64,000 nt of DNA from the IMG/VR virus record IMGVR_UViG_3300006931_000029, positions 93,124-157,123 of that record; one strand, given 5' to 3'. Positions 21,489-48,559 of this stretch are shown one piece after another. The stretch is from a virus. Every line of letters starts with the position of its first letter. The stretch's first letter is position 1. The notes under the pieces were generated by a model. The model searched no databases and was not told the origin of the DNA. It saw only the letters and a list, made by a program, of their open reading frames with translations. The translations under genes and the position numbers were made by a program.

Positions 21489-21876
21489 CTAAACGTCTTC
21501 CCGTGTTAGGTTCGATTTGGACAGCTCGGTCGTCCCACAATTCCGTCATCGCAAAATCCTTTTGACACGTGATCGGAAGGACAACGCCAAAGTGCTTCTC
21601 ACACCATTTTCTAATGTGAATCGCTGCCTGCATCGCGTCGCTCTCTCGGTCGTTGGCGCCAACGAACTGCTCAACCCGATCTTCAGGGTGAATCATGTTT
21701 AGCGGCCAGACACGAGCTGTGAAGATTCGAACTTTCTTCCCTTGGACGAGCCAACGTCGAAGACGCAGAGCCATCGCTGGCACTGGTTCTCCGATGTGTT
21801 CAGCGTTTTTCCACCCCTGGTAATCGGCCAAAGTTCCGTCGAGGTCAACCCCGATCCATCCGCCAATGTGAGCCAT
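21466..21876 (-). CDS. HAD-superfamily small phosphatase-like
   Basis: GVDLDGTLA (DxDGT motif I), IFTAR (motif II-like). Confidence 0.45.
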   Translation of the reverse strand: MAHIGGWIGVDLDGTLADYQGWKNAEHIGEPVPAMALRLRRWLVQGKKVRIFTARVWPLNMIHPEDRVEQFVGANDRESDAMQAAIHIRKWCEKHFGVVLPITCQKDFAMTELWDDRAVQIEPNTGRRLDGVNDLQ

Positions 21877-23177
21877 TAGATTTCGTAGAGTCCGTGCAGT
21901 CGTGGACCATCCTTGATGGCTGCAAGATGCGCCTTCGTGTAGAGGATATTGTGGTCCTTGTGGAACTGCGACGGAAAGTAATTCTCAAGGTGCACAATCT
22001 GGAAACGGCACGTCGAGCCGAGATGTTTGATGTAGTGCTGCATGTGTTTCTTCGTGTAGTACCAGAAGCTGTTTGAGTTCCAGAACGACACGTGGCTCGG
22101 GTCTTGGTACGCTCCACGCCCATCAGTTGACGGCACTTCGATCAAGAACAAACCTCCGTGGTGCAGAACTCGGTACGCCTCATTCATAAACTGCACCACC
22201 TTGTTAGGATGAATGTGTTCAATCAAATCCTGAGCGCGTAGTGCTCCGACGCTGTTGTCTGGAAATGGCCACGTCTCTTCGAGATTGGCGATCACGGGCG
22301 CGTCGTGAACGTCGACTCCTTCCCAGCCAGGAGGAGGGTTGATTCCGCCGCCGAGATCGAGACAGCGAAGACCTTGCCGTTTCCAAAAAAAGACAGCAAA
22401 ATCTTGGATGAACCTGGCGTGGACTTGCCACGTCAGCTGTTCGATCAATTTCTGGTGCTTCAACCACGTGTTGTCGCCGTGGATCAGATATTTGTAGAGC
22501 ACCTTCTCGATGTGGTAAAAATTGCCCATGCTCATCTGATAGAGCTTGCACATCAGCTCAAGATCATCGCAAACCAGCATGTTTTCGTTGTGCCCTCCGA
22601 CAGCGTTGTAAGCGTCCATTCTCCACGCTCGAACATGGTCAGGAGCATACCAGATTCTCGTGACGTTTTGAGGAATTGCCAGCGGGTGAACAGCCACTCG
22701 GTGAGTTTCCACTGTGGCACCATGAAATTCGCGCTCAGTGTATTCCCAGCCATAAGCCGGACCATAAATTTCAGGTTTGCCGTCGGCGTGAATTCGCACA
22801 GCGTCAGAGAAAACAAAGACGGCGTTAGTCTTCAGGAACGCGGCCAAAACTTCTTCCAGACAATCTACTGATAGCTCGTCATCGTGGTCGAACTCGACGG
22901 CGAAGGGACTCATGGCGTGTTGACACGCCTTCTTTTTCAAAGCGCCGACGTTGATCGAACCATCTTCGTTTTTCTTACCCTCAAACGGGAAAAATTTGAC
23001 GCGCTGATCGTTCTCGACTATTGCGTAGCATTCTTTAGACGAGTTCTTTTGCAGGATTTTGCCGTTGAGCACCACGATCCATTCCCAGTCAGTAAGCGTC
23101 TGGCGCTTCAAACTTTGGTAGGCTTGCTCAAGCCACTTAATCGAGTTGGTTGGTGTGATAACTGAAATCTGAGCCAT
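21876..23177 (-). CDS. bifunctional glycosyltransferase family 2 / SAM-dependent methyltransferase-like
   Basis: N-term ISVITPTNSIKWLEQAYQSLKRQT (GT2); C-terminal part LDLGGG...HHGGLFLIEVP resembles class I methyltransferase fold. Confidence 0.5.
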   Translation of the reverse strand: MAQISVITPTNSIKWLEQAYQSLKRQTLTDWEWIVVLNGKILQKNSSKECYAIVENDQRVKFFPFEGKKNEDGSINVGALKKKACQHAMSPFAVEFDHDDELSVDCLEEVLAAFLKTNAVFVFSDAVRIHADGKPEIYGPAYGWEYTEREFHGATVETHRVAVHPLAIPQNVTRIWYAPDHVRAWRMDAYNAVGGHNENMLVCDDLELMCKLYQMSMGNFYHIEKVLYKYLIHGDNTWLKHQKLIEQLTWQVHARFIQDFAVFFWKRQGLRCLDLGGGINPPPGWEGVDVHDAPVIANLEETWPFPDNSVGALRAQDLIEHIHPNKVVQFMNEAYRVLHHGGLFLIEVPSTDGRGAYQDPSHVSFWNSNSFWYYTKKHMQHYIKHLGSTCRFQIVHLENYFPSQFHKDHNILYTKAHLAAIKDGPRLHGLYEI

Positions 23178-23211: not shown

Positions 23212-25113
23212 TCACATCGGAATCACGGTCACCCTCATGTCCATCGATCCAGGAGTTAAATCGCCGGCAAGCCAATTCTGAAGGTTCACACCAACAGTTC
23301 CAGATGACACAACGTTTGCGGTCACGACGGCGCCAGTAGGCCAAGCGAAGCCGTCGATCCGGTTGACCATCGCTGCGTCGTTAATGTCTACACCGCCAAG
23401 CGGAACGTTCAGATCGGACGCCAGGCCGGAACCAACGGTTCCAAAATCGTGAGACACGGTTGCTGTGAGTAGCGAGATTGAGCCTTGAAATCCTTGAGGA
23501 CCTTGAAATCCCTGCGAACCTGTGCTTCCTTGAGCGCCGGTATCTCCTTGCGCTCCAGTGCCGCCGGCTGCACCTTGAAAACCTTGAAAGCCTTGTGTAC
23601 CCGTTGAGCCTTGAAATCCCTGCGCGCCAGTATCTCCCTGCGCGCCCTGGAAACCTGCTCCTTGAAAACCTTGCGTTCCAGTCGTCCCTTGAAATCCTTG
23701 GCGGCCCTGAAAACCCTGAGCGCCCGTCACACCTTGCGATCCTTGCGCACCAGTAACGCCAGACGGCCCGGCAGGAACGAAGTCAACGACGATGTCTTCA
23801 AGGTCGCCGAAAGTTCCTTCAGTCAAGAACGGAGACACCGTGAACTTCCTGTAGCCTGTTGCCGTCACGAACAGCGTGACGTTGAAAAATCCAAAGACGC
23901 TAGGATCAACTGGCGAGTAGAAGTGGAAAATACCCTTCAGAGTGCCTGATCCGACAGAGTTAATAGCACCAAGCCATGCAGAGACGTCGACGTTGTTGTC
24001 GTTAGTCGTGCTGAAATACATTTCCGTCACGGAATCAGGATCGGCGTTGTTGAACGCAATCAAGCCGAGACCAGGGTCTTGGTCCACGGTGGACGTCGAA
24101 AAAGCGTACGGTTGGAAGTTTCCACCGAGATTGCCTTGCGGTCCTTGAAACCCTTGAGCGCCAAGTCCGCCTTGATTTCCAAGCGGGCCCGGAATTCCTT
24201 GTGGACCCGACGAACCCTGCGGACCGGCGATGACGCTGGGAGCGCCTTGCGGTCCTTGAAACCCTTGGAAACCCTGAAGTCCCTGGCTGCCGACGTTTCC
24301 TCTAGCTCCTTGAAACCCTTGCGTTCCCTCAGAGCCTTGAATGCCTTGATTTCCCTGTGATCCGCGCAAAAGAACTTGAGCCGACAGTTCGCTAGGAGTT
24401 TCCGTAGACGTCGTGTCTGCGCCTAGAGTTCCTTCAATGTTCTGCTGCGTAGCAACGTCCAACATTCCGATGATGTCTTGGCGGACCTGTGCAAGATTAT
24501 CGACAGCGGCCTGCTGTTCAGCAGTCAAGACTTTCGCATTTTCGCCACCGAGACCAATCCCATTTCGATAATTCTCCTGTGTCCGTTGAATAACCGGTTG
24601 CGTGTACACGCCGACCTGATTCGTGGCGCCGCAAATTGCTCTGGCGCAGTTGACTGCTTGAATGCCAGGGCCAATTCTCTTTTCAAACTCCTTTGCCGCA
24701 TCGCTGATCATGCCGTCAACTCGCGCCTGTAGTTGACCCAATTTTGCGAACGGATGCGTGTCGAGATTTCGCAGCAGCTTCAGGTAGGCTTCGTTTACGG
24801 CGTTCTGAAGATCGATCAACGCCTTGCCGTTGAACGGCGGCAAGAGTCCAGGACACAAAGCTTGAAGCTGATTGTATTTGTCGATGTCAACCAGCACGAT
24901 TGCGGTTAACTTAGACGGATCGACCAGAGGAATGTCTAGGCCTGCGTTGAAAAGCAAGTCGGCGACTCGACGCAGTGCTGCGAAGCGACCAATCAACTTG
25001 TTAAGCTGGTCAGTCGCGCCGACCGCGATCGCGTCCAGCATGGCGCAGAGTTCTTGTGGCGTGGACTGAGGCATTTTTCTAATTACAACGTTACTTAGGT
25101 CTAAGACCTCCAC
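23212..25113 (-). CDS. collagen-like triple-helix repeat fibre protein
   Basis: two blocks of G-x-Q/G-x-x repeats (GFQGAQGSQG...), Pro-poor; contains an approx 110-aa non-collagen domain (…ATGYRKFTV…) also repeated in 46014..48248. Confidence 0.6.
   Translation of the reverse strand: MEVLDLSNVVIRKMPQSTPQELCAMLDAIAVGATDQLNKLIGRFAALRRVADLLFNAGLDIPLVDPSKLTAIVLVDIDKYNQLQALCPGLLPPFNGKALIDLQNAVNEAYLKLLRNLDTHPFAKLGQLQARVDGMISDAAKEFEKRIGPGIQAVNCARAICGATNQVGVYTQPVIQRTQENYRNGIGLGGENAKVLTAEQQAAVDNLAQVRQDIIGMLDVATQQNIEGTLGADTTSTETPSELSAQVLLRGSQGNQGIQGSEGTQGFQGARGNVGSQGLQGFQGFQGPQGAPSVIAGPQGSSGPQGIPGPLGNQGGLGAQGFQGPQGNLGGNFQPYAFSTSTVDQDPGLGLIAFNNADPDSVTEMYFSTTNDNNVDVSAWLGAINSVGSGTLKGIFHFYSPVDPSVFGFFNVTLFVTATGYRKFTVSPFLTEGTFGDLEDIVVDFVPAGPSGVTGAQGSQGVTGAQGFQGRQGFQGTTGTQGFQGAGFQGAQGDTGAQGFQGSTGTQGFQGFQGAAGGTGAQGDTGAQGSTGSQGFQGPQGFQGSISLLTATVSHDFGTVGSGLASDLNVPLGGVDINDAAMVNRIDGFAWPTGAVVTANVVSSGTVGVNLQNWLAGDLTPGSMDMRVTVIPM
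23470..23770. repeat. collagen-like GxQ coding tandem repeat
   Basis: 9-nt periodic cc(t/c)tg(a/g)aa(a/t)cc-type units; all frames open. Confidence 0.55.
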
Positions 25114-25479: not shown

Positions 25480-25917
25480 GTGGACTTTTTCGTAATCATA
25501 CCGGAGAAAAGGAATACCGGGTACTGTTGCGTCAAGTTCTGTCGTCACAAAACTCGAAAGAAGTATCACGACGGAAACTTTTGCCGTCGCTGCCGAGATA
25601 GGCGATACGCGATCAAAAACCCAGTGTCCTACGCCTGGGACAAGTTGCGTTACAGCGCACGGCGCCGCAAGATTCCATTTGAATTGACAATGGACCAGTT
25701 TCGTGTTTTCTGCATTGAAACAGGTTACATCGAGCAGAAGGGTAAGTCCAGCACATGTCTGACGATCGATCGAGTCGACGCATCAAAAGGCTATGCCATC
25801 AGCAACATCCAGACGCTGACACAAACAGAAAATGGCCGCAAATCTTACGTCGACAGAAAGTTGGCCGAGTACAAGGCTCCTGAGATTGAACCGTACGACG
25901 AAGAGAATCCGTTTTAA
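25480..25917 (+). CDS. Zn-binding protein with degenerate HNH_3-like segment
   Basis: Cys-rich N-term; LTIDRVDASKGYAISNIQTLTQTEN resembles DHIDGNK..NNR..NLRLVT..EN but lacks the His. Confidence 0.3.
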   Translation: MDFFVIIPEKRNTGYCCVKFCRHKTRKKYHDGNFCRRCRDRRYAIKNPVSYAWDKLRYSARRRKIPFELTMDQFRVFCIETGYIEQKGKSSTCLTIDRVDASKGYAISNIQTLTQTENGRKSYVDRKLAEYKAPEIEPYDEENPF

Positions 25918-28106
25918 GTGTCGGCTTGAGCCGTGAAGTCGGCTGTGAGGAAGTCGCAATCGTTCACCGCCCCGGCGAGCGACGTGGTTGGGTCGAAGTC
26001 GTCGATCCAGAATTCCTCGTGAAACACATAAATGCCGGCCGAGATCATCCACGGCTGGAACGTTTGCTTCGTTGGGAAAGAATCGGTCGGGTCGACTTGC
26101 CTAATTTCTCGATTGGCAATGTCATAGTAAATGCCGTTTGGCGTTAGGGCAGGTTGTCCAATGTCACCCGGGCGCCCAACTCGAAAAGCGTCTTTCAACC
26201 TGGATTCAACCACGAGAATGTAGTTCATCCACGACTCGGTAGATTCCTGTGTCCAAACAGTGGAGTTGGCGAATACCGGCTGAGTCTCTGCACTGAGCGT
26301 ATACGCCCGACGGATCGACTCCAAAGCTTTCTGCATGTAGGTTCGCTTCCACAACCGATAGCCGGAAATCTGGGATGTCTCGCGTTGAGAACCGAATCGA
26401 CGGATGTCGATCGTTCTCAGGTATAGGCCGCCGATGTTGACGTCATCCAGGAAGAGATTGACAGTCCCTGGATTCGCGTTGAAGAAGTCAAAGAAGAGCG
26501 TGTCAGGACGACCCGATTGACTGGAGAAGATTGCCGTAGACGCGACCGCTCCCATCGTGGCCGTCATTTTGCAACTGAGATTGCCTTCGCGAACGTTCAC
26601 AAACTCAACCACGCCTACAGTCAACTTACCAGAGCCGCTATCGGTTCTTTCGATCGTGAATGAACCAACGTCGCCGTCAGCAGCCAAGACGTAGGAGTTC
26701 GAGTAGATGAACGTGCCAGCATCTTGACCATAAAGGATGAAGCCTTCGAAGAGAACCGTACCGTTCCAGATGACGCGTACTAGGAAATTGTCCGTGTCTG
26801 CCGAGTTATCAGCGAACCGGAACCGAACGGTGTAACGGCCTTCGATTAGTTTGATTTGCCAGTTGAGGAAACTCGGTCCGTTAAGCGTGGCGGTTTCAGA
26901 GCCGTCTGCTGGGATGCCATTGAGGTTCAAGCTACCGAATACTCGCGCAATGCGACTAGGTTCAAAATAGATCGCCAAACGATAGTGAGCAGTTGATGGG
27001 TCGGTAATTTGAGGAGTGAAAGAAACTCCAGAGCCAGGCGCGGGAAGATAAACTCCATCCGGCTGGTAGACTGCGCCAGATGCAAGGCTCACGTCTGCAA
27101 CCGGATTCGGCTGGTAGTAAATGGGGACGGCGCGGTACGTGTTGATCTTCAGCCTATTCGACTTCTGCCGCCAAAACTGGGCGTCTTCGTAGCTAGGACG
27201 AGCTCCTCGCACGGCGAGCGTGGTGGATGGATACGTCAACGCCAGCGACCCTCCGAATGGAGTTGAACCACTGCCATCAAATGTTTCTCCGAACCATGTC
27301 ACGGTCCGCAGGAACCGGTCGTAGACGATTCGATTACGATCAACCAAACCAGGTGAGGCGACAAACGTACGATAGCGTTCACCATCGTCTTTGAGGGTGT
27401 AAATCTCTGATTCGCGTGGGCCGTCGATGTCGGTCACTTGGACGTACAGTCGAGTTGCCCGGCTGTAGAGATCGTTGAGCTCGTACGCAACGTTGGCAAT
27501 TGCCGTGGCAACCTTGTTATCGCGATCGGCGAGCAGTTGATCCGGTTCCTTGAACATCGGGACTGAAAGCGGAAGTGAACCGCTAACGGCCGAACGGCGC
27601 GTGCTTCCTTCTGCTAACGACCAAACGTCGGTTGGCGTGACGCCAGAAACGATCGATGCAATAGGCGAAACCTCGAAAACGCTGGCAACCTTAACGAGTG
27701 ACTCGTACAGAAGCACGTCTCGAGCATAAAGCTGTCGGTCTGTAGTGATCGCTGCGATTGGGCGCGACGACGGTCTAACGTGAGTCACAGCGCCTGGAAA
27801 AGCCGGCGTCGCCATGTCAGCCGTCGATGCTTGAAGATCGCCCGTTGGGACGCCCTGCACAGCTGGTCTCGTGGTGTCCAATCCGAAGACTTCAGCCGCT
27901 TCAACAGACACCTCAGAAAGCAACGCCATGAGTATGACGTCTCGGTAGGCAAGTTCGAAATCCCGCGCAGCGTATGCCGTGGCGTCGATCCCTACGTTTG
28001 CGTTGACAACGGTCAGTGCGCTACCTGGTACCCGAGATTGACCCCACGCCAGCGTGGTTGGAAGCGGGATGATTCGAACAGACTGAAGAGGAGTCGCGAG
28101 GGCCAT
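25914..28106 (-). CDS. large hypothetical structural protein
   Basis: 730-aa ORF adjacent to fibre gene; no motif recognised. Confidence 0.45.
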   Translation of the reverse strand: MALATPLQSVRIIPLPTTLAWGQSRVPGSALTVVNANVGIDATAYAARDFELAYRDVILMALLSEVSVEAAEVFGLDTTRPAVQGVPTGDLQASTADMATPAFPGAVTHVRPSSRPIAAITTDRQLYARDVLLYESLVKVASVFEVSPIASIVSGVTPTDVWSLAEGSTRRSAVSGSLPLSVPMFKEPDQLLADRDNKVATAIANVAYELNDLYSRATRLYVQVTDIDGPRESEIYTLKDDGERYRTFVASPGLVDRNRIVYDRFLRTVTWFGETFDGSGSTPFGGSLALTYPSTTLAVRGARPSYEDAQFWRQKSNRLKINTYRAVPIYYQPNPVADVSLASGAVYQPDGVYLPAPGSGVSFTPQITDPSTAHYRLAIYFEPSRIARVFGSLNLNGIPADGSETATLNGPSFLNWQIKLIEGRYTVRFRFADNSADTDNFLVRVIWNGTVLFEGFILYGQDAGTFIYSNSYVLAADGDVGSFTIERTDSGSGKLTVGVVEFVNVREGNLSCKMTATMGAVASTAIFSSQSGRPDTLFFDFFNANPGTVNLFLDDVNIGGLYLRTIDIRRFGSQRETSQISGYRLWKRTYMQKALESIRRAYTLSAETQPVFANSTVWTQESTESWMNYILVVESRLKDAFRVGRPGDIGQPALTPNGIYYDIANREIRQVDPTDSFPTKQTFQPWMISAGIYVFHEEFWIDDFDPTTSLAGAVNDCDFLTADFTAQADT

Positions 28107-30054: not shown

Positions 30055-30405
30055 ATGGACGACAAGAAGCCGGACGAACTGGTCGAGAAGCTGCTTAACG
30101 AAGACCCGGGTGACGAGAAGCTCGATCCGGTTTACGTTCAGCGCAGAGATGACGTTCGTCGTCAAGCTGCTGAGCCGTCCAGAAAGCCGAATCCACGCGA
30201 AATGGAAATCGAGCAGGGTGACGACGATGTCGATCCGGAGGAGCAATTTGAGTTGGACCTTCGCGAAGCGATTGAAGGAACAATCGAAGGTGCAAGAGCC
30301 AGAACTTATGCCGAAAATGGCGTGCTGACCCGCAACAAGGGTTTGGTGGTGGATACGTCCTATGGGACGTTCCAAGTCACGATCGTTCTGAAGAATCGCG
30401 CTTAG
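30055..30405 (+). CDS. small acidic protein, LVExML N-terminal-motif family
   Basis: N-term MDDKKPDELVEKLLNEDP; terminates with tandem TAG TAG (30403-30408). Confidence 0.45.
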   Translation: MDDKKPDELVEKLLNEDPGDEKLDPVYVQRRDDVRRQAAEPSRKPNPREMEIEQGDDDVDPEEQFELDLREAIEGTIEGARARTYAENGVLTRNKGLVVDTSYGTFQVTIVLKNRA

Positions 30406-30644
30406 TAGCGGATGTGGTGGGCTTCGAGAGACCTGAGCCTAGCTTCAACGTTGGCGTCATAAAGCAACGCTTCAATTCGGGCTAGCCGTTCTTCGACGGT
30501 CATTCCTTTCAGGCCCGAAAGAAATACGCGCTTAGCGAGACTCGCTTTCGCCGTCCGACACGAGGCACAAACTCGAGAGCCATCTACGACTTCGTGTTTG
30601 TCTTGGTCACATTCGATGCAGTGAAAATCAGCGACTAGAGCCAT
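30402..30644 (-). CDS. Zn-ribbon small protein
   Basis: CIECDQDKHEVVDGSRVCASC (CxxC...CxxC). Confidence 0.4.
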   Translation of the reverse strand: MALVADFHCIECDQDKHEVVDGSRVCASCRTAKASLAKRVFLSGLKGMTVEERLARIEALLYDANVEARLRSLEAHHIRY

Positions 30645-31006
30645 TAGGACGCCTGTTGTTCGGCGTCTCCAAGAACGGCAGTGGCCATCTTCTGAAGTTC
30701 GACCCAGCAGGTTGGGTCGAGGTTGATCGGTTTGATTTCGTACTTCGGAAACATGTCGGCTAGTTGCCGCGGAGTGATGTCCTCGTTGATAGGAGCCAGA
30801 ATTAGCATGACCGTGCGGAGCAATTCGTCTTGGAAGTCAAGGTCGGCTCCTGCGCAGTAGTCCAAGTCAACACAGCCGCATCCTACGAGTCCCATGCGGA
30901 CACGGACACCAAACATCATCCGCGTGAACCCGATTTCCCAGCGACCACCGAGAGACACCCAGCGGTGGAAGAAATTTTCGTTGGGTTGTGCCGGTTTGAA
31001 AACCAT
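30644..31006 (-). CDS. hypothetical protein
   Basis: 120-aa ORF; promoter-like motif 27 nt upstream on minus strand. Confidence 0.4.
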   Translation of the reverse strand: MVFKPAQPNENFFHRWVSLGGRWEIGFTRMMFGVRVRMGLVGCGCVDLDYCAGADLDFQDELLRTVMLILAPINEDITPRQLADMFPKYEIKPINLDPTCWVELQKMATAVLGDAEQQAS

Positions 31007-31034
31007 GACTCTATCTTAAGAACGTATCAAAATG

Positions 31035-31050
31035 TGTAAACAAAAAAAAA
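31035..31050 (-). promoter_or_regulatory. TTTTTTTTTGTTTACA promoter-like motif (minus-strand orientation)
   Basis: plus strand reads TGTAAACAAAAAAAAA; lies between terminator and start of 30644..31006. Confidence 0.45.
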
Positions 31051-31072
31051 GAGGGCAGCTTTCGCCGCCCTC
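31041..31072 (-). terminator. rho-independent terminator
   Basis: minus strand: GAGGGCGGC-GAAA-GCTGCCCTC hairpin (9-bp stem, one mismatch) followed by T9; downstream of flotillin/NfeD operon. Confidence 0.6.
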
Positions 31073-31100
31073 CTTTTCGGGGGTTTGGTGTAGTCCGGCT

Positions 31101-32897
31101 TTAGGTCTTCTTTGCCGCGGGCACTGCAGGCGAAGGTGTCGTTTCAACGTCCGTCACCATTCCCGCCATCTGAGCGAGTTTGGACGGGTCCATCTTCAGA
31201 AGCTTCAGCAACGGCGTAACGTCAACGCCAGCCGCTTTTGCTTTGAGGAAGAATTCAGTAACCATGCCAGGGATTGCGCCAGCGAAACTGGCGACGCCGC
31301 CGCCTTTGCCGTCACCGGTGCCCATGTCAACGATGGAAACATTCTTGATCGCACCCAGCGACGTGCCGAGAGGACCGAACATTGCCGCCAACATTTTAGC
31401 GCCGGCATCGCCGCCCTTGTCGAAGAGCACAGGAAGACGATCGAGTACCATGATGAATTTGCCTTCTTCAGATAGTTGCTTCAACGCCTCGGCCAATTTC
31501 TCGGTACCTTCAGCTTCGGCGAGAAGAGCAGCGCGTTTACCGTTGGCAACAGCGAGCAATCCTTTCTCAGAACCATCGGCTTCGGCAAGAAGAGCAGCAC
31601 GCCGACCGTCAGCAGCTGCGAGTTGGTTTGCACGAACACCTTCTGCGATGGCGAGTTGGGTTGCCTTATTGCCATCGGCCTCGGCTGTCAACTTGACGCG
31701 TGTCGCTTCACCTTCAGCCGCAGCGATCGTGCGAGTCTTGGACGCGATACCTTCACCTTCCTTGACAGCAGCGTTTGCTTTACCGGTTGCCGTGATTTCC
31801 AGTTGACGCGCCGTGCGTTCAGACACGGATTGCTGGTTATCGGCCTCAATGAGGGCAGCTTTGGCTTTCGCCTCAGCTTCGACGATGATTGTCGCCTGCA
31901 GTCTCTTTTGGTTGAGACTAGCCTGCTTTTCCTGCACGGCAATACCAGCGTCAGCGGCTGCGGCGTCTCTGGCCGCTTCTTTCACCCGGAGATTTTGCTC
32001 TTGGGCTGTTTTAGCAATGGCGTTGGCCATATCGGCCTCAGCTTTTTTGCCTTCAGTTTGAACCTTAAACTCGGCAATCTGAATGTCGCGTTTCTTTTCG
32101 GCGTCAGCGACCATAGCGGCGTTCTGCGCCTTTACCTCGGCCGACTCGCGTTCAGCGTTAGACGTCTTGATGGCGGTTTCCTTCTTTGCTTCTGCCGTGG
32201 CGATTTCAGCATCACGGATGATGGCGGCGGTTTCTTTACGGCCGAGAGCCTTGATGTAGCCTTCCGCGTCTTGAACGTCTTGCACGACCAGCGTGATGAT
32301 CTGAATCCCGAGACGGCGGAACTCGTCAGACGACTCTTCAAGAACCTGCTTGTTGAACTCAGAGCGATCCCGAAGAATCTGCTCGACGCTCAACTTAGCA
32401 ATGATGCTACGAACGTGACCGCGAAGGATTTCGCTAATCGTGCTCTTGATTTCTTCGGCGTCTTTGCCGAGGAATGCTTGCACCGCATTCGATTGTTCGT
32501 CGGGATTCGGCGAAACACGGCATGTGGCAACGGCAGTGATGTTAACCGGGACGTTCTTGGCCGTCGGCACCTGTTGCTCCTTAATTTCCACCTGGAAGGC
32601 AGCTGTGCTCATGACCTCGAACCGCTCCACGATCGGCATCAAAATCTTACCACCACCGGTGATGATTTTGAATCCGCGGATACCGGTCTTCTGAACGGAC
32701 TCCTCGGTGTAGTTGTACTTGTACTTCCGGCCGTAGAAGACGCCGATGCCGTTCGGCGGAACCGTTTTGTAGCGCGATGCGGCAATGAAGCCAACGATCG
32801 CGACGCAGATAACGACGGCGATGATTACACCTGGAACGAAAAAGCCACCAAGCAAACCGGGGCTTGCTTGAGCGAGGAAGAGCATGCTAGTATTCAT
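31101..32897 (-). CDS. SPFH/band-7 flotillin-like protein
   Basis: N-terminal TM anchor, SPFH-domain-like region, long Ala/Glu/Lys-rich coiled-coil (EA repeats) typical of flotillin/YqiK. Confidence 0.65.
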   Translation of the reverse strand: MNTSMLFLAQASPGLLGGFFVPGVIIAVVICVAIVGFIAASRYKTVPPNGIGVFYGRKYKYNYTEESVQKTGIRGFKIITGGGKILMPIVERFEVMSTAAFQVEIKEQQVPTAKNVPVNITAVATCRVSPNPDEQSNAVQAFLGKDAEEIKSTISEILRGHVRSIIAKLSVEQILRDRSEFNKQVLEESSDEFRRLGIQIITLVVQDVQDAEGYIKALGRKETAAIIRDAEIATAEAKKETAIKTSNAERESAEVKAQNAAMVADAEKKRDIQIAEFKVQTEGKKAEADMANAIAKTAQEQNLRVKEAARDAAAADAGIAVQEKQASLNQKRLQATIIVEAEAKAKAALIEADNQQSVSERTARQLEITATGKANAAVKEGEGIASKTRTIAAAEGEATRVKLTAEADGNKATQLAIAEGVRANQLAAADGRRAALLAEADGSEKGLLAVANGKRAALLAEAEGTEKLAEALKQLSEEGKFIMVLDRLPVLFDKGGDAGAKMLAAMFGPLGTSLGAIKNVSIVDMGTGDGKGGGVASFAGAIPGMVTEFFLKAKAAGVDVTPLLKLLKMDPSKLAQMAGMVTDVETTPSPAVPAAKKT

Positions 32898-33587
32898 TTA
32901 TTCGACAATAAGGGTTGATCCTGAAACTGAGACGACTCTGACTTCCCGCCCGCGTGAAATAAGCAACTCAGTCATCCTCGCTCTGGCGAAGAAAGTTGTG
33001 TATTGACCACTGACAGAAAGAGCAACTTCGCCGGTACCGCCTGGCACAATGTCAATCGTGACGGTGCCGGTTCTGCCGACAGCAGAGTCGATGTCCAAAT
33101 TAGACGAGGCTTGCTGGCTGTAGAGCATGCGCAACATTCCGATCATCAATCCGCCAAGGCTCATACCGGATGCAAGACCGACAAGCGATGAGCTCGTAAC
33201 GCCAAGACCGTAGACGGTTGATAAGGCGCCGCCAGCTCCGAGACCAACGCAGAAGAGCGCGATGATCTTTGGCGAAAAGATGCTCACAGTTGCGTGGCCC
33301 GAATCTCCGCCATGATCGGCGTCATGGTCGTGCTCGTGACCGCCGTCGCCGTGTCCACCGCCGCCGAATTGGCCGAGTATCCAAGCAGCGACGAGGTAGA
33401 CCATTCCAACTGCGATGCACAGCGAGAAGACAAGAAGTTGCGTTGAGTCACGCAGGGCGTTGATGAATGAATTCATGGGAATGTTTGAGAACTGTAACGG
33501 TCTGGAAAACTTTGAGGGTACGGAAAGTGTTGAGGACAATCCCGGTTTTTGCAGTTGTCGTCGGCACAGATGTACTCTTCGCGCCAT
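32898..33587 (-). CDS. NfeD/YuaF-like membrane protein (flotillin partner)
   Basis: His/Gly/Asp-rich loop, multiple TM segments, C-terminal OB-fold-like GRTGTVTIDIVPGGTGEVALSVSGQYTTFFARA...REVRVVSVSGSTLIVE; immediately upstream of flotillin in same operon. Confidence 0.5.
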   Translation of the reverse strand: MARRVHLCRRQLQKPGLSSTLSVPSKFSRPLQFSNIPMNSFINALRDSTQLLVFSLCIAVGMVYLVAAWILGQFGGGGHGDGGHEHDHDADHGGDSGHATVSIFSPKIIALFCVGLGAGGALSTVYGLGVTSSSLVGLASGMSLGGLMIGMLRMLYSQQASSNLDIDSAVGRTGTVTIDIVPGGTGEVALSVSGQYTTFFARARMTELLISRGREVRVVSVSGSTLIVE

Positions 33588-33711
33588 TGACGCTCGTAGA
33601 TTCTGCAGGCAACTTCAAACGCTGCGTCGTCCACGTACTCTTCGCGTTGTGGTGCGCCATTCGGGTACGACGTGGTCTTCTGTAGCCAAAACTTCTTGAC
33701 GACGATCTTGC

Positions 33712-34209
33712 TCACTTGATCAGCGGGAGTTTGATCCGCGGAGACTTACGAGGACGCCTCTTGTTTTCAACCATCTTCTTCAGGATGGCTGTCCGATTCG
33801 CCTTGGCCGACACCAGAGATCGCTCGAGTGATCTGATATGGCCAACAGCTTCCGCGTACGCCACGCGGACAGAATGGTCGTGAAGCCGATTCCTGAACGT
33901 GTCGTCGTCCAGCCGCTGCTGAATCAAGCGCCGGAAAATGCGTAGAAGCGATCGGCGATGGCGGGAGTCCCATGCGACGTGGTATGAACCCCGAACGCCG
34001 TGGATATAGGCGTGCCCTGACGAATACTTCTCAGAGACCCAGTAGCCGCGAACCCTCATCAGCTCTGGAGAAGGCGGTTGCTTCTGATCCGTCTGCGCCA
34101 GTTGAAAATCTGCCGAATGAACGTAAATCTTACCGCTGTGGCAGAGGAATTCCAGGGTAGCGGAATTGCCCTTGTCGTCCTTGGCTTTAGTGAAAATCGA
34201 TTGATTCAC
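33712..34209 (-). CDS. hypothetical protein
   Basis: 165-aa ORF. Confidence 0.4.
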   Translation of the reverse strand: MNQSIFTKAKDDKGNSATLEFLCHSGKIYVHSADFQLAQTDQKQPPSPELMRVRGYWVSEKYSSGHAYIHGVRGSYHVAWDSRHRRSLLRIFRRLIQQRLDDDTFRNRLHDHSVRVAYAEAVGHIRSLERSLVSAKANRTAILKKMVENKRRPRKSPRIKLPLIK

Positions 34210-34259
34210 GAAGCCAGAGAACGTAGTCTGGCTAGCCAGGATTCAAAATTGTTTACGAA

Positions 34260-34571
34260 TCAGTTAATAGGCAACCTAGCTCTGTCTGGAATTCTCAACT
34301 GCTTGCCAGTTGGAATGTCCAGAAACGGATCGGTGAGATTGTTCACTTGAGCAATCGCCCACCACAATTTAGCCGTGCCGTAGAAGCTGAACGAGATGCG
34401 ATCAAGCCTATTCTCGGCGCCTTGGCGAACGGTGTAAATCTGGTCAGTTGCAGCTGGCAGCACCACCGGTTGTTGGAGTCCAAGGACGATGACTCCACCG
34501 ACGTCGTAAACCGGCGTCTTGCTGAACATCGAAAGACTTGGAAGTGGGACCTTCTTAACCGATACGGCCAT
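34260..34571 (-). CDS. LysM-domain protein
   Basis: YTVRQGAENRLDRISFSFYGTAKLWWAIAQVNNL...GKQLRIP matches LysM pattern. Confidence 0.45.
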   Translation of the reverse strand: MAVSVKKVPLPSLSMFSKTPVYDVGGVIVLGLQQPVVLPAATDQIYTVRQGAENRLDRISFSFYGTAKLWWAIAQVNNLTDPFLDIPTGKQLRIPDRARLPIN

Positions 34572-34576
34572 TTGCC

Positions 34577-34936
34577 CTAAGTATCACTCTTCTGGTCGCT
34601 CCGAACTAGCTTGAGAAGGTGACCGTATCTTCCTGTGAATCTTTCCACCTTGAGCGGAAACGACGGCTCCTCAATCTTCGAAAATCGTGAAGCCGTCAGG
34701 CACGGTTCGTAATTTTTTGGCCCACCTTCAGGCGGGGATCGTCGACCTATTTTCTCGCCATGCGGTGCGAAAACGATTAGGTCGATGGTGCCGTCCGACC
34801 AGGTTTCTTTAACCTTTCCGAACGTTGGGCTATGATCGTCCGTGTGATCTTTGACCCAGTCTCCGGTTTTGAACGGAAACTTATTTTTCTGTGTTTGCTT
34901 TAGGGGCAAGTTTTTCCTTAAGAGCCAGTTCAACAA
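34577..34936 (-). CDS. hypothetical protein
   Basis: 119-aa ORF; 56-nt overlap with next gene so start uncertain. Confidence 0.35.
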   Translation of the reverse strand: MLNWLLRKNLPLKQTQKNKFPFKTGDWVKDHTDDHSPTFGKVKETWSDGTIDLIVFAPHGEKIGRRSPPEGGPKNYEPCLTASRFSKIEEPSFPLKVERFTGRYGHLLKLVRSDQKSDT

Positions 34937-46013: not shown

Positions 46014-48248
46014 TTAAGTAGCGAACAGCCAGAGAAAACGAGGGTCGTTGCCGGCCACGCCCTGGAAACCTTGATTTCCCTGGAATCCTTGAAAGCCTTG
46101 CGTTCCCGTTGCGCCTTGAACTCCTTGAGGACCTTGGAAACCCTGATTTCCTTGCGATCCTTGGGAACCTTGAGAACCCTGCGATCCCGCAGGTCCAGCG
46201 AACGCGAATGTGAAACAGACCTCGTCATTCAGCGAGAACGTTGTACCGGAATCGTCCTGGTACGTGACAGCGAATTTGCGATAGCCGGTCGCCGACACCA
46301 CGCTTCCTGTGAAGATGAATGTTGCAAACGTGTTGACGTCTGCCTTCTTGTAGACCTTTATCGTGCCGCGGTTGGTAGACGATCCGAAGTTGTCCAACGA
46401 ATCCAACCATCCTGTGACGTCAACCAACGACTCGTTGAGCAAGTCAACATAAAGGAACGTAACAGAAGCATAGGTCGCGTTGTTGAACTTCAGGAAGCCA
46501 TCGCCAGGATCAGAGTCGGCTGTGTTGGTGTTGAAGAAGAAAATCTGCGTGTCGCCGCCGGCACTAGAATCACCGGACGAACCTTGGAATCCTTGCGAGC
46601 CTTGAGAACCCGTCGAGCCCTGGTTGCCTATAGACCCTTGGAATCCTTGCGAGCCTTGAGCTCCTTGATTTCCTTGAGCGCCCGTGCTTCCCGCCGCTCC
46701 TTGCGCACCAGTCAATCCCTGGAAACCCTGGCGGCCCTGGAAACCTTGTGCGCCTTGTGCGCCGTCGTTGCCGGGCGCTCCGGTCAATCCTTGAACACCT
46801 TGGTTTCCTTGGTTGCCAGTGTATGTCCACGTGAACGCAATGTCATTACCAGCAGTGAACGTCGTGCCTGAAGAATGCTGGAACGTGACGGCAATCTTTC
46901 GATAACCCGTCGCCGTTGTGACGCTTCCAGTGACGATGAACGTAATGAAGACGTTTGCATCTGCGCTCTTGAACAACTTGAGCACGCCGCGGTTCGTCGA
47001 CGAGCCAAAGTCGTCGATAGCATCCAACCACGTTGTGATGTCGACGCCACCTTTGTTGAACGTGCTCGCAAAAATCTGGGTGACAGAAGCGTAGGTCGCG
47101 TTGTTGAAACGGACCTTGCCGCTACCCGGGTCTGCGTCGCTCGTTCCGGTGTCCCATGTGTAGATTTGTGTGTCGCCGCCAGAACCTTCGCTGCCCTGCG
47201 CACCTGTAGAACCCTGATTTCCTTGGAAACCCTGAGAGCCCGTAGTTCCAGTTGAGCCTTGGAATCCCTGATTACCCTGCGAACCTTGGAATCCTTGGAA
47301 TCCCTGCGCGCCATCGGGAGGACCTTGGAATCCTTGGAATCCCTGACTGCCTTGTGATCCTTGTGCTCCCGCAGTTCCGGCTGAGCCTTGACTACCTTGC
47401 GATCCAGTCGACCCGGTCGCACCTTGAAAACCTTGAAAGCCTTGCGCTCCAGTTGATCCCGCCGCTCCTTGAAGTCCTTGGAAACCTTGGCGACCTTGGA
47501 ATCCTTGCGAGCCTTGAGCACCCGCTGCGCCTTGCGAACCCTGAAATCCCTGCGCGCCATCAGGAGGACCTTGGAATCCTTGAAAACCCTGTGCACCTTG
47601 AGAGCCAGTTGAACCTTGAAATCCCTGCGAACCCGTCGTTCCTGTCACGCCTTGGAAACCTTGACGACCTTGGAATCCCTGCGCACCTTGCGATCCCGTG
47701 GTTCCAGTTGAGCCTTGGAAACCTTGGTTGCCCTGCGCTCCGCTGATGCCATAAGTGAAGATCGCGACTCCCGTGAAAACAGGAGACGGCGCTGCTGAGA
47801 AGACCGTGCAAGTTAGCGTGACGGTCGAATTGATGTTGTCGAACGAAACGTTAGTGATGCTGTAGACAACGTGTGTCGAAGAGTTCGTCTCGAGATAGAT
47901 GACAAAGTGAGACGGTGCCAATCCCGAAAACCAACTCGAAGCGTTCTGACCCGCAAGGTTCGTTTGATTTGCGACAATGGCTGTTGCGAGTTGAGGGCTC
48001 GCATTGTTCAATCGGAAAGTTCCAGTCGTTGGATTTCCAGTCGTCAGCGACGAATAGGTGTAGCGCTGCGACGGCCCGCCTGCTGTTCCTGTCGGCCCTT
48101 GAAAACCCTGAAATCCTTGAAAACCCTGAGCGCCCTGATTCGCGTCCGCGTAATCTTTGTTGACTGCGTCTTTGCCATCAACCGGTGCACTCAAACCAGC
48201 CAACCGCTGGTTTTCGAGCGTATTGCCTCTTTGAATGATCGGAACCAT
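46014..48248 (-). CDS. collagen-like repeat fibre protein with three interspersed about 110-aa globular domains
   Basis: multiple GxQ/GxxG blocks; repeated domain ...FNNATYASVT...GSSTNRG...TGSV..ATGYRK(I/F)AVT... Confidence 0.6.
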   Translation of the reverse strand: MVPIIQRGNTLENQRLAGLSAPVDGKDAVNKDYADANQGAQGFQGFQGFQGPTGTAGGPSQRYTYSSLTTGNPTTGTFRLNNASPQLATAIVANQTNLAGQNASSWFSGLAPSHFVIYLETNSSTHVVYSITNVSFDNINSTVTLTCTVFSAAPSPVFTGVAIFTYGISGAQGNQGFQGSTGTTGSQGAQGFQGRQGFQGVTGTTGSQGFQGSTGSQGAQGFQGFQGPPDGAQGFQGSQGAAGAQGSQGFQGRQGFQGLQGAAGSTGAQGFQGFQGATGSTGSQGSQGSAGTAGAQGSQGSQGFQGFQGPPDGAQGFQGFQGSQGNQGFQGSTGTTGSQGFQGNQGSTGAQGSEGSGGDTQIYTWDTGTSDADPGSGKVRFNNATYASVTQIFASTFNKGGVDITTWLDAIDDFGSSTNRGVLKLFKSADANVFITFIVTGSVTTATGYRKIAVTFQHSSGTTFTAGNDIAFTWTYTGNQGNQGVQGLTGAPGNDGAQGAQGFQGRQGFQGLTGAQGAAGSTGAQGNQGAQGSQGFQGSIGNQGSTGSQGSQGFQGSSGDSSAGGDTQIFFFNTNTADSDPGDGFLKFNNATYASVTFLYVDLLNESLVDVTGWLDSLDNFGSSTNRGTIKVYKKADVNTFATFIFTGSVVSATGYRKFAVTYQDDSGTTFSLNDEVCFTFAFAGPAGSQGSQGSQGSQGNQGFQGPQGVQGATGTQGFQGFQGNQGFQGVAGNDPRFLWLFAT
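47170..47760. repeat. collagen-like GxQ coding tandem repeat
   Basis: 9-nt periodic ccttg(a/g)aa(a/t)cc units over about 600 nt. Confidence 0.55.
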
Positions 48249-48559
48249 TAGATGGCAATGAAGGAGACAGTTGCACTGAGGGAACTGTCGGCGCTAGCAA
48301 TGAGATAGATCGAATCCCCAGCGGAAAGAAGGATTTTTTCAGTCGAAAGGAACAGGCTGTCGTACGCTCTCATCGTCCGGCTTTTGATGATTGTGGTCGT
48401 CGGACTTGCAGCGTTTCCCTGTTTGATGACGTGAACATCCACCGTTCGCTCGGCATTTACATAGTTGCAAACCATAATGTTCACAACCGCGTAGTTCAAC
48501 CCCGCCGGGACGGTCAGAAGCGTTGTTCCCGCTGCTGCGATCAGGTTCTGTAAGATCAT
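48248..48559 (-). CDS. hypothetical protein
   Basis: 103-aa ORF coupled to neighbours. Confidence 0.4.
   Translation of the reverse strand: MILQNLIAAAGTTLLTVPAGLNYAVVNIMVCNYVNAERTVDVHVIKQGNAASPTTTIIKSRTMRAYDSLFLSTEKILLSAGDSIYLIASADSSLSATVSFIAI

Follow-up and report, generated by a model that had tools for sequence, protein, structure and literature searches.

The 64,000-nucleotide stretch of viral DNA analysed here (positions 93,124 to 157,123 of IMG/VR virus record IMGVR_UViG_3300006931_000029, referred to below as the window) carries two adjacent genes, one for a flotillin, a membrane protein of the SPFH superfamily, and one directly upstream of it for a small membrane protein of the NfeD family. 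Judged from sequence matches and structure models, the identity of the two proteins as flotillin and NfeD is close to certain, and together the genes form a bona fide NfeD-flotillin operon. The pair is very probably carried by an uncultured jumbo phage of about 200 kb, an assignment that draws on gene context and relatives. The features of the two genes are listed below; positions are those of the window, and all features lie on the minus strand.

31101..32897, minus strand: flotillin gene (598 amino acids), SPFH2 / FloT-YqiK type (Pfam, NCBIfam, PDB sequence matches, Foldseek)
32784..32840, minus strand: flotillin N-terminal membrane anchor, residues 20-38 (Kyte-Doolittle window mean 3.0; AlphaFold helix 20-41)
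32184..32765, minus strand: flotillin SPFH / Band 7 domain, residues 45-238 (Pfam envelope; predicted local distance difference test score, pLDDT, 81-87 in the core of the model)
31458..32183, minus strand: flotillin Ala/Glu/Lys-rich long-helix (coiled-coil) region, residues 239-480 (composition; predicted helices)
31104..31457, minus strand: flotillin Gly/Ala-rich C-terminal region, residues 481-598 (composition; low model confidence)
32898..33476, minus strand: NfeD partner gene (192 amino acids; short, YuaF/YqiJ type), with corrected start (homologue alignment, ATGA overlap, independent gene call)
33132..33434, minus strand: NfeD membrane part (hydropathy; AlphaFold helices)
33378-33434, minus strand: NfeD transmembrane helix 1, residues 15-33 (hydropathy)
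33297-33368, minus strand: NfeD Asp/His/Gly-rich loop, residues 37-60 (sequence; AlphaFold disordered loop 40-61)
33210-33266, minus strand: NfeD transmembrane helix 2, residues 71-89 (hydropathy)
33132-33188, minus strand: NfeD transmembrane helix 3, residues 97-115 (hydropathy)
32901..33089, minus strand: NfeD C-terminal beta domain with an oligonucleotide/oligosaccharide-binding fold (OB-fold), residues 130-192 (Pfam NfeD stretch; AlphaFold; structural matches)

The flotillin and its NfeD partner

The original prediction for 31101..32897, a membrane-anchored SPFH protein with a long Glu/Ala-rich coiled coil, was borne out. Band_7 (PF01145) matched residues 45-238 in Pfam with an E-value of 2e-28 (100 bits against a cut-off of 23.6), and hydropathy analysis placed a single hydrophobic anchor, residues 20-38, before the SPFH domain. 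Residues 239-480 contain 26% Ala, 12% Glu, and 10% Lys; two very long helices were predicted with AlphaFold at 214-287 and 308-477, and this helical region aligns to the helical region of human flotillin-1/2. The C-terminal region shares conserved motifs with cellular homologues in the alignment. The best sequence matches in the PDB, obtained using phmmer, were human flotillin-2 and -1 (E about 1e-37, residues 77-429), those of PH stomatin (6e-7) and QmcA (3e-4) being far weaker. Comparison of the model with known structures using Foldseek returned flotillin structures for all of the top five matches, and the Band 7 domain of mouse flotillin-2 (1win) superposed on the model with a TM-score of 0.77 and a root-mean-square deviation (rmsd) of 2.1 A. 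The Pfam Flot model matched weakly (E 0.015, 15.8 bits against a cut-off of 27). Two plus-strand open reading frames (ORFs) inside the flotillin gene, 31476-32918 (480 amino acids) and 31180-31806 (208 amino acids), are almost certainly not genes; they look ‘conserved’ in tblastn because they shadow the Ala/Glu-rich coding strand of the flotillin.

The partner had been predicted to be encoded by 32898..33587 and to have several transmembrane segments, a His/Asp/Gly-rich loop, and a C-terminal OB-fold of the NfeD type. The family, the three helices, the loop, and the OB-fold all stood, and only the start had to be moved. The 229-amino-acid ORF 32898-33587 is over-extended, and the true start was set at the ATG at 33476, giving 192 amino acids, because three lines of evidence agree: the homologues have 188-198 amino acids and their alignment begins at the Met of this ATG, the ATG overlaps the stop of the upstream 80-amino-acid ORF as ATGA, and an independent gene caller applied to the public source contig also reported 192 amino acids. 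The TAA stop codon (32898-32900) abuts the flotillin ATG (32897), leaving a gap of 0 nt.

Three N-terminal hydrophobic stretches were found in the NfeD protein by hydropathy and as predicted helices (2-38, 69-88, and 93-125 in the AlphaFold model). The Asp/His/Gly-rich loop has the sequence FGGGGHGDGGHEHDHDADHGGDSG; this loop and a ‘SIFSPK’ motif are also conserved in the cellular partners. As a single sequence, the protein matched Pfam NfeD (PF01957) over residues 130-192 with an E-value of 1.1e-5 and 26.0 bits, under the cut-off of 29.1, and a precomputed match to PF01957 is present in 13 of 27 homologues. A profile built from 28 sequences of the family and compared with the PDB retrieved YuaF (E 8.5e-7), followed only by other NfeD OB-folds, among them 3wwv, the Pyrococcus stomatin-operon partner (4e-4), and 2k5h (7e-3). 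Profile searches thus supported the SPFH and the NfeD assignments alike, the latter through the family profile. The AlphaFold model has a mean pLDDT of 80.9, with five beta strands above 90. Its top five PDB matches in Foldseek were all NfeD proteins, including full-length YbbJ of the QmcA-YbbJ cage, and its OB-fold matched 2k14, 3cp0, 2k5h, and 3wwv; the alignment with YbbJ covered 185 columns, with poor overall superposition (rmsd 10.9 A). NfeD was the sole Pfam match of the 192-amino-acid partner and no ClpP-like serine protease domain was found in it, which marks it as the short form. Family profile, predicted fold, and operon context together identify the small protein as a short NfeD.

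The likeness to the bacterial FloT-YuaF and YqiK pairings that had been proposed at the outset was upheld by gene order, architecture, and the best match of the partner. In both YuaF-FloT (YuaG) of B. subtilis and YqiJ-YqiK of E. coli, the NfeD gene comes first and the flotillin gene second in tight coupling, as in the window. YuaF and YqiJ share with the window partner the three hydrophobic helices and the C-terminal OB-fold, and YuaF is its best match in sequence and in structure; FloT and YqiK share with the window flotillin the N-terminal anchor, the SPFH domain, and the long Ala/Glu-rich helices. The class formed by SPFH2 proteins and YuaF/YqiJ was described as having a partner with three hydrophobic stretches as well as a soluble domain of the all-beta type (PMC2636767, Hinderhofer et al. 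2009). In the same study, prokaryotic flotillin and partner genes were reported to co-evolve and to be laterally transferred together, and yuaFGI was placed under sigma-W stress regulation (PMC2636767). The two cellular systems are chromosomal, whereas the window pair is phage-borne and belongs to a clade so far seen only on phage-like contigs, and it lacks a third gene like B. subtilis yuaI.

Phage carriage and ancestry of the pair

The exact flotillin sequence was found on a public contig of 199,264 bp (Logan SRR5451359_10617), just under the 200-kb line, and further copies lie on contigs of at least 200 kb. The earlier suggestion that the pair is carried by a phage was supported by the genes around it and by its relatives. 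The window contains a UvsX-like recombinase, a DnaB-like helicase, a family A DNA polymerase, an endonuclease V-like protein, and a phosphoesterase of phage type, together with two tRNAs and densely packed small ORFs without assigned function, and no cellular housekeeping gene was recognised in its 64 kb. Tail-related matches within it are strong for collagen-repeat tail fibres and weak for minor-tail and fibre-assembly proteins. Two related contigs, L001 (147 kb) and L098 (229 kb), show colinearity with more than 20 kb of the window, and protein identities are 45-95%. A 205-kb contig encoding a 65%-identical flotillin is the IMG/VR viral genome UViG_3300037423_001636, and a 213-kb contig encoding a 56%-identical flotillin has a tail-sheath gene 5 kb from the pair.

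Cellular counterparts were collected from one genome per species (185,579 species), and 80 loci were retrieved. The partner lies directly upstream of the flotillin in all 76 loci for which upstream sequence is present, the other four starting at a contig edge, and also in all phage-clade loci examined. The distance matrices of flotillins and partners, compared over 80 loci, are strongly correlated (Mantel r = 0.905; none of 2000 permutations reached this value), and on this sequence comparison the two genes are judged to be co-inherited, in agreement with PMC2636767. The cellular pairs (L017-L096) come from Verrucomicrobiota, Patescibacteria, Bacteroidota, Acidobacteriota, Planctomycetota, and others. 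Their flotillins align over the full length to that of the window, at 39-50% identity in the nearer group and 30-35% in the distant loci, and the pairs share with the window pair the Asp/His-rich loop and the ‘SIFSPK’ and ‘Y-QQ-SS’ motifs; unlike it, they stand in chromosomal contexts next to housekeeping genes, for example FtsH, RecG, SMC, and Kdp.

The closest cellular flotillin is 50% identical to that of the window, and the phage-context copies are 56-82% identical; every copy in the latter range lies on a phage-like contig where the context is readable. In a neighbour-joining tree the confirmed phage-context flotillins form one clade, with Patescibacteria and Verrucomicrobia sequences adjacent. 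Relative to the sister phage, the proportions of nonsynonymous and synonymous differences (pN and pS) are 0.13 and 0.68 for the flotillin and 0.21 and 0.71 for NfeD. Synonymous divergence (dS) is saturated, so the resulting dN/dS of about 0.1 is approximate; the values indicate purifying selection on both genes. Recent horizontal import was rejected, since the G+C content of the pair, overall and at third codon positions (GC and GC3), equals that of the other window genes and no close cellular donor was found. Across different phage backgrounds the pair is nearly the only gene set shared near the locus. On the simplest reading of these sequence data, an ancestor of a diverse clade of jumbo phages would have captured the entire operon long ago, and selection would have retained it since. 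One protein of a close relative may be a truncated or rearranged flotillin: P0040, annotated as HflC-like, has 484 amino acids, is encoded on a 225-kb contig, and is 84% identical to the window flotillin over only half of the length of the latter.

The claim that such a pair is not standard phage equipment was assessed in phage databases and held for the cultured phages. A flotillin relative is encoded in no more than 9 of 50,697 deposited phage records, in all of them below 30% identity and in several as a short unannotated fragment. The claim did not hold for the jumbo clade or for an abundant lineage of crAss-like phages, of which at least 233 IMG/VR contigs encode a flotillin of the csAssE-Sib type. 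The profile scans of IMG/VR were pattern-limited and recovered one jumbo-clade contig, which makes such counts lower bounds, and a scan with the window protein alone gave no match. Two of the nine records are solid genomes, the crAss-like csAssE-Sib (OR575929.1) and Vibrio phage KIT04 (LC487410.1, gene 048), and in both the gene already carries the label ‘flotillin family protein’. Like that of the window, their flotillins are phage-encoded SPFH proteins of flotillin length; unlike it, they reach only 26-30% identity and occupy a separate tree branch, and on this sequence evidence their acquisition was probably a separate event. Because the crAss-like copies form a branch of their own, phages would have acquired flotillins independently at least twice. 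In csAssE-Sib (locus L006, 2405-4632) and its crAss-like relatives (L100-L179) the flotillin gene adjoins an acyl carrier protein gene. Directly upstream of the crAss-like flotillin is a 164-amino-acid membrane protein, which gave no direct match to Pfam NfeD and is tied to the NfeD family only through a chain of homology; in KIT04 only an 82-amino-acid ORF without an OB-fold lies upstream.

SPFH or Band 7 ORFs have also been listed in T4-like phages (44RR, Aeh1, RB43), Vi01-like phages, Schitoviridae, and Xanthomonas jumbo phages (PMC1524935; PMC10892097; PMC13239085; PMC13384950), and the reason for their presence ‘remains unclear’ according to one of these papers (PMC13239085). They resemble the window case in that SPFH genes recur in large virulent phages. 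They differ in being short ORFs reported as generic SPFH-domain or lipoprotein matches, with no coupled NfeD reported; this comparison was made by description only. In the literature searched, phage flotillins appear in passing annotations only; no paper was found that deals with what a phage flotillin or a phage NfeD-flotillin pair does, and the crAss-like flotillin pair lineage is apparently not discussed there.

Several observations weigh against the account given so far. With regard to identity, the flotillin scored 232.7 bits with the NCBIfam FloT equivalog model (NF058507) over residues 23-411, the cut-off of the model being 700; because this score is far under the cut-off, the protein is placed, by sequence, as a member of the flotillin family and not as a FloT orthologue. 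No phage NfeD partner reaches the Pfam NfeD gathering score by itself. With regard to ancestry, the flotillin tree has no bootstrap support, and the window NfeD is at most 49% identical to cellular partners and 38-45% identical to the other phage-clade partners. The NfeD proteins of the phage clade (the window, L005, L008, L015, and L016) are 34-45% identical to one another, the flotillins showing the opposite pattern, which may reflect accelerated evolution of the partner in phages or partner exchange. With regard to the carrier, no capsid, portal, or terminase was recognised among the scanned ORFs of the window, and its two largest proteins without assignment, at 25914-28106 (730 amino acids) and 48556-51222 (888 amino acids), both on the minus strand, had no tblastn match in the 50,697 deposited phage genomes. 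For these reasons the lineage is regarded as novel and the phage status as strong but contextual. Neither large protein matched Pfam or PHROG; both are candidates for novel virion or other core proteins, and the 730-amino-acid protein is 86% conserved with the sister phage. A blastn search of the region against the same 50,697 genomes gave no match at the DNA level, and neither the flotillin nor the NfeD protein matched any family in PHROGs.

The missing virion genes could also mean that the pair is not phage-borne at all, the window being cellular, plasmid, or mis-assembled DNA and the pair a host operon. Two homologues are indeed labelled in public data as proteins of bacterial metagenome-assembled genomes (MAGs), an Opitutales MAG fragment on a 2-kb contig, which falls inside the phage flotillin clade, and a Taylorbacteria MAG copy, which falls outside it. 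This possibility is considered extremely unlikely in view of the phage replication and tail-fibre genes, the dense small ORFs and lack of housekeeping genes, the colinear contigs of 147-229 kb, and the relatives classified as viral by IMG/VR or carrying a tail sheath. The composition of the pair, moreover, is that of the rest of the window, and no copy above 50% identity was found in a cellular genome.

Transcription unit and neighbouring genes

The features around the pair that bear on its transcription are listed below, all on the minus strand.

31013..31040, minus strand: promoter-like element TTTACA-16-TAAGAT, directly after the terminator and before the next gene at 30644-31006 (consensus scan)
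31042..31072, minus strand: intrinsic terminator with a 9-bp GC-rich stem, GAAA loop, and T9 (terminator scan; folding)
33473..33715, minus strand: 80-amino-acid ORF with a 4-nt overlap at either end, one with the NfeD start (ATGA) and one with the ORF upstream; likewise called as a gene on the source contig
33712..34209, minus strand: 165-amino-acid ORF of the same cluster, with a 46% identical homologue at the syntenic place in L001
34260..34571, minus strand: 103-amino-acid ORF with 87% conservation in the sister phage; faint resemblance to LysM / gp53 (E 0.001-0.009, below cut-offs)
34577..34936, minus strand: ORF of up to 119 amino acids with uncertain start; 96 amino acids in relatives
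34881..36743, minus strand: AAA+ ATPase (620 amino acids), first gene of the same-strand cluster (Pfam AAA, E 7.6e-14; phrog_29662, E 3.7e-68)
36775..36803, minus strand: promoter-like element TTTACA-17-TAGAGT in the divergent intergenic region upstream of the AAA+ gene (consensus scan only)

A hairpin followed by nine T residues had been proposed to terminate the unit, and the analysis agrees. The structure lies about 30 bases past the flotillin stop and was the top-ranked site of the terminator scan. Its stem (31072-31064 paired with 31059-31051) precedes the T9 tract (31050-31042) and can be extended to 15 bp with the flanking A/T tracts (31045-31078). Folding gave -24.9 kcal/mol (z = -5.2), and 0 of 200 shuffled sequences were as stable. 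A hairpin is present at the same position in L001, L098, and L016; that of L098 has a longer and different stem, which indicates that the structure was retained despite sequence change. The flotillin gene therefore ends a transcription unit. TTTACA and TA(A/G)GAT-like hexamers after the terminator are likewise conserved in L001 and L098.

The two genes had been proposed to be transcribed as one unit by themselves. Tight coupling and the hairpin end support a common unit, but the pair is probably its tail and not a self-contained two-gene transcript. The same-strand cluster consists of the AAA+ ATPase gene (34881-36743), four small ORFs, NfeD, and flotillin in this order, with successive gaps of -56, 5, 50, -4, -4, and 0 nt, and the unit probably comprises these seven genes, starting at the AAA+ gene (36743). 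The 80-amino-acid ORF at 33473..33715 had no family match, and the 165-amino-acid ORF at 33712..34209 had none in Pfam, PHROG, or PADLOC. The AAA+ ATPase has an AAA domain of the classical clade at about residues 345-600, and its N-terminal half of about 340 residues is without assignment; its PDB matches to VCP, katanin, Msp1, and spastin are weak, as are matches to TRIP13 and to PADLOC IetA.

Divergent to the AAA+ gene lies a gene for a 689-amino-acid protein (36814-38883, plus strand), which is 90% conserved with the sister phage and, with a dN/dS of about 0.035, among the most conserved of the region; its homologues carry the Pfam MJ0330_N domain. No Shine-Dalgarno sequence could be recognised within the 25 nt before any of the nine minus-strand gene starts in 30402-36743, which may hint at a host that relies little on Shine-Dalgarno-led initiation. 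Elsewhere in the window, two proteins with collagen-triple-helix repeats (23212-25113 and 46014-48248, both on the minus strand) have strong tail-fibre PHROG matches, and a glycosyltransferase-methyltransferase fusion (21876-23177) adjoins the first of them.

A tRNA with a CUA anticodon, which would read UAG, was identified at 39458-39533 (plus strand; called tRNA-Pyl by ARAGORN, Rfam tRNA score 65.8 bits) and is conserved at the syntenic position in L001 (3089-3163, minus strand) and L098 (3785-3861, minus strand). TAG is the rarest stop in the window, used by 6 of 71 genes. Recoding of stop codons in the window was rejected; ORFs of the standard code cover 88.5% of it and reading TAG as sense adds almost nothing. 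The tRNA may be a suppressor directed against host genes or serve a part of the genome outside the window. A tRNA-Glu (UUC) call at 40690-40785 (plus strand) is long (96 nt) and has an Rfam score of 31.6 against 29 bits, and at the matching place in L001 an odd call with a 2-base anticodon was obtained; it could be an intron-containing, degenerate, or non-canonical tRNA.

Proposed function and significance

As a whole, the findings are best explained, though tentatively, by a phage-resident NfeD-flotillin scaffold for the stabilisation of membrane and proteins. By analogy with solved SPFH complexes, namely the flotillin-1/2 cage (9bq2), HflK/C, and QmcA-YbbJ, the pair is likely to act as a cage-forming scaffold in infected cells. 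Both proteins would be made together during infection and inserted into the cytoplasmic membrane of the host. The N-terminal helix and the SPFH domain would hold the flotillin there, and many copies would bundle through their long helices into a dome-shaped cage over a patch of membrane. NfeD would place its three helices in the enclosed patch and dock its OB-fold on the SPFH ring, where it would help the cage to form or make it more stable. The QmcA-YbbJ cage (PDB 8z5g), built of 26 SPFH-NfeD heterodimers (PMC13086221), and the human flotillin-1/2 cage (9bq2, 9l3g) are structural templates for the way in which the pair probably works. QmcA is stomatin-like, whereas the window protein is flotillin-like, and eukaryotic flotillins have neither an NfeD partner nor a transmembrane helix, both of which the window flotillin has.

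Maintenance of membrane or protein homeostasis as the purpose of such a cage is a more doubtful proposal, argued by analogy. It is favoured because bacterial FloT/YuaF and FloA/NfeD have been tied to membrane stress and protein stabilisation; in S. aureus, FloA-NfeD stabilises unfolded proteins under stress independently of ATP (PMC13086221). Deletions of bacterial flotillins often give mild phenotypes (PMC13086221), and a maintenance role may accordingly be wrong. A phage with a genome of about 200 kb presumably needs a functional host membrane throughout its long infection. By bringing its own scaffold for membrane stress and membrane proteins, the phage might keep the host membrane and energy supply intact through a long and resource-heavy infection.

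Three alternatives were ranked behind this proposal; exclusion, lysis timing, and assembly, which figure among them, had been suggested at the outset and are speculative. The foremost is superinfection exclusion or competition between phages, in which the cage would alter the inner membrane or sequester a component needed for DNA entry and so block later phages. Membrane-located accessory proteins of phages often serve exclusion, the pair sits among non-structural accessory genes, and its retention in very different genome backgrounds would suit a self-contained accessory module. PADLOC, however, gave no match to a defence model for the pair or for the small ORFs beside it, and the literature searched shows no exclusion system that uses SPFH-NfeD; the strong conservation of the cellular-type architecture, loop, and motifs suggests instead that an ancestral biochemical role was kept, and exclusion is considered unlikely. 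In the next alternative, the cage would enclose a membrane AAA+ enzyme, either host FtsH or a phage AAA+ protein, as in HflK/C-FtsH or prohibitin-m-AAA, and would shield phage proteins from degradation or control the turnover of membrane proteins. SPFH cages around AAA proteases are structurally established (7wi3 and 9cz2 are among the fold matches), and the AAA+ ATPase at 34881-36743, whose PHROG family is labelled ‘ATP-dependent protease’, heads the same cluster in the window, L001, and L098, with a different AAA protein about 3.5 kb upstream of the pair in L004/L005. The association is not general, since L008, L015, and L016 lack an AAA gene within 8 kb of their pairs. In the AAA+ protein itself no protease domain could be detected, the solved structures closest to it, matched with weak E-values, are those of classical AAA proteins that are soluble or tail-anchored, and the window flotillin is not of the HflK/C type; as an FtsH-like protease partner the ATPase was accordingly rejected, and regulation of a membrane AAA+ enzyme is retained as an improbable rival.

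The last of the three, a platform for a membrane-bound phage process, was given the least credence. Such a platform would bring holins or spanins together to control when lysis occurs, or hold complexes for replication or assembly at the membrane, and PMC5718613 and PMC4409396 describe bacterial flotillin scaffolds that recruit and concentrate membrane protein complexes. Against it, the neighbourhoods read around the pair contained no recognisable holin, endolysin, or spanin gene, and NfeD is the sole neighbour conserved across backgrounds.

Taken individually, the two proteins are ordinary members of well-described families, and phage flotillins are already annotated in databases. What is new is modest: a separate flotillin clade that occurs only on contigs resembling jumbo phages, evidence that a phage flotillin-NfeD pair has long been resident and kept by selection, and the carriage by a phage of the full NfeD-flotillin operon, beyond an SPFH domain alone. 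Bacterial flotillin-NfeD pairs are widespread and their physiological role is debated. A phage keeps only genes that pay during infection. The module would thus give a benefit within a single infection cycle, because the pair has been under purifying selection across a clade of phages of about 150-230 kb and a flotillin, with a probable NfeD-like partner, was separately acquired by an abundant lineage of gut phages.

A bolder interpretation, to which little probability is assigned, is a dedicated viral membrane compartment, in which a clade of jumbo phages and, independently, crAss-like gut phages would use flotillin-NfeD microdomains of their own to set part of the host membrane apart for a step specific to the virus. 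Candidates for such a step are a site of genome entry or early infection, a zone hiding phage membrane proteins from host proteases or membrane-acting defences, and a lysis or assembly platform. If this were true, the compartment would be the bacterial-virus counterpart of the exploitation of flotillin rafts by eukaryotic viruses. Unless a virus-specific role is found, the pair changes no paradigm. Membrane-organising scaffolds nevertheless join the list of host-like functions brought by large phages, and the phage pair is a small natural system in which the role of SPFH cages could be studied.

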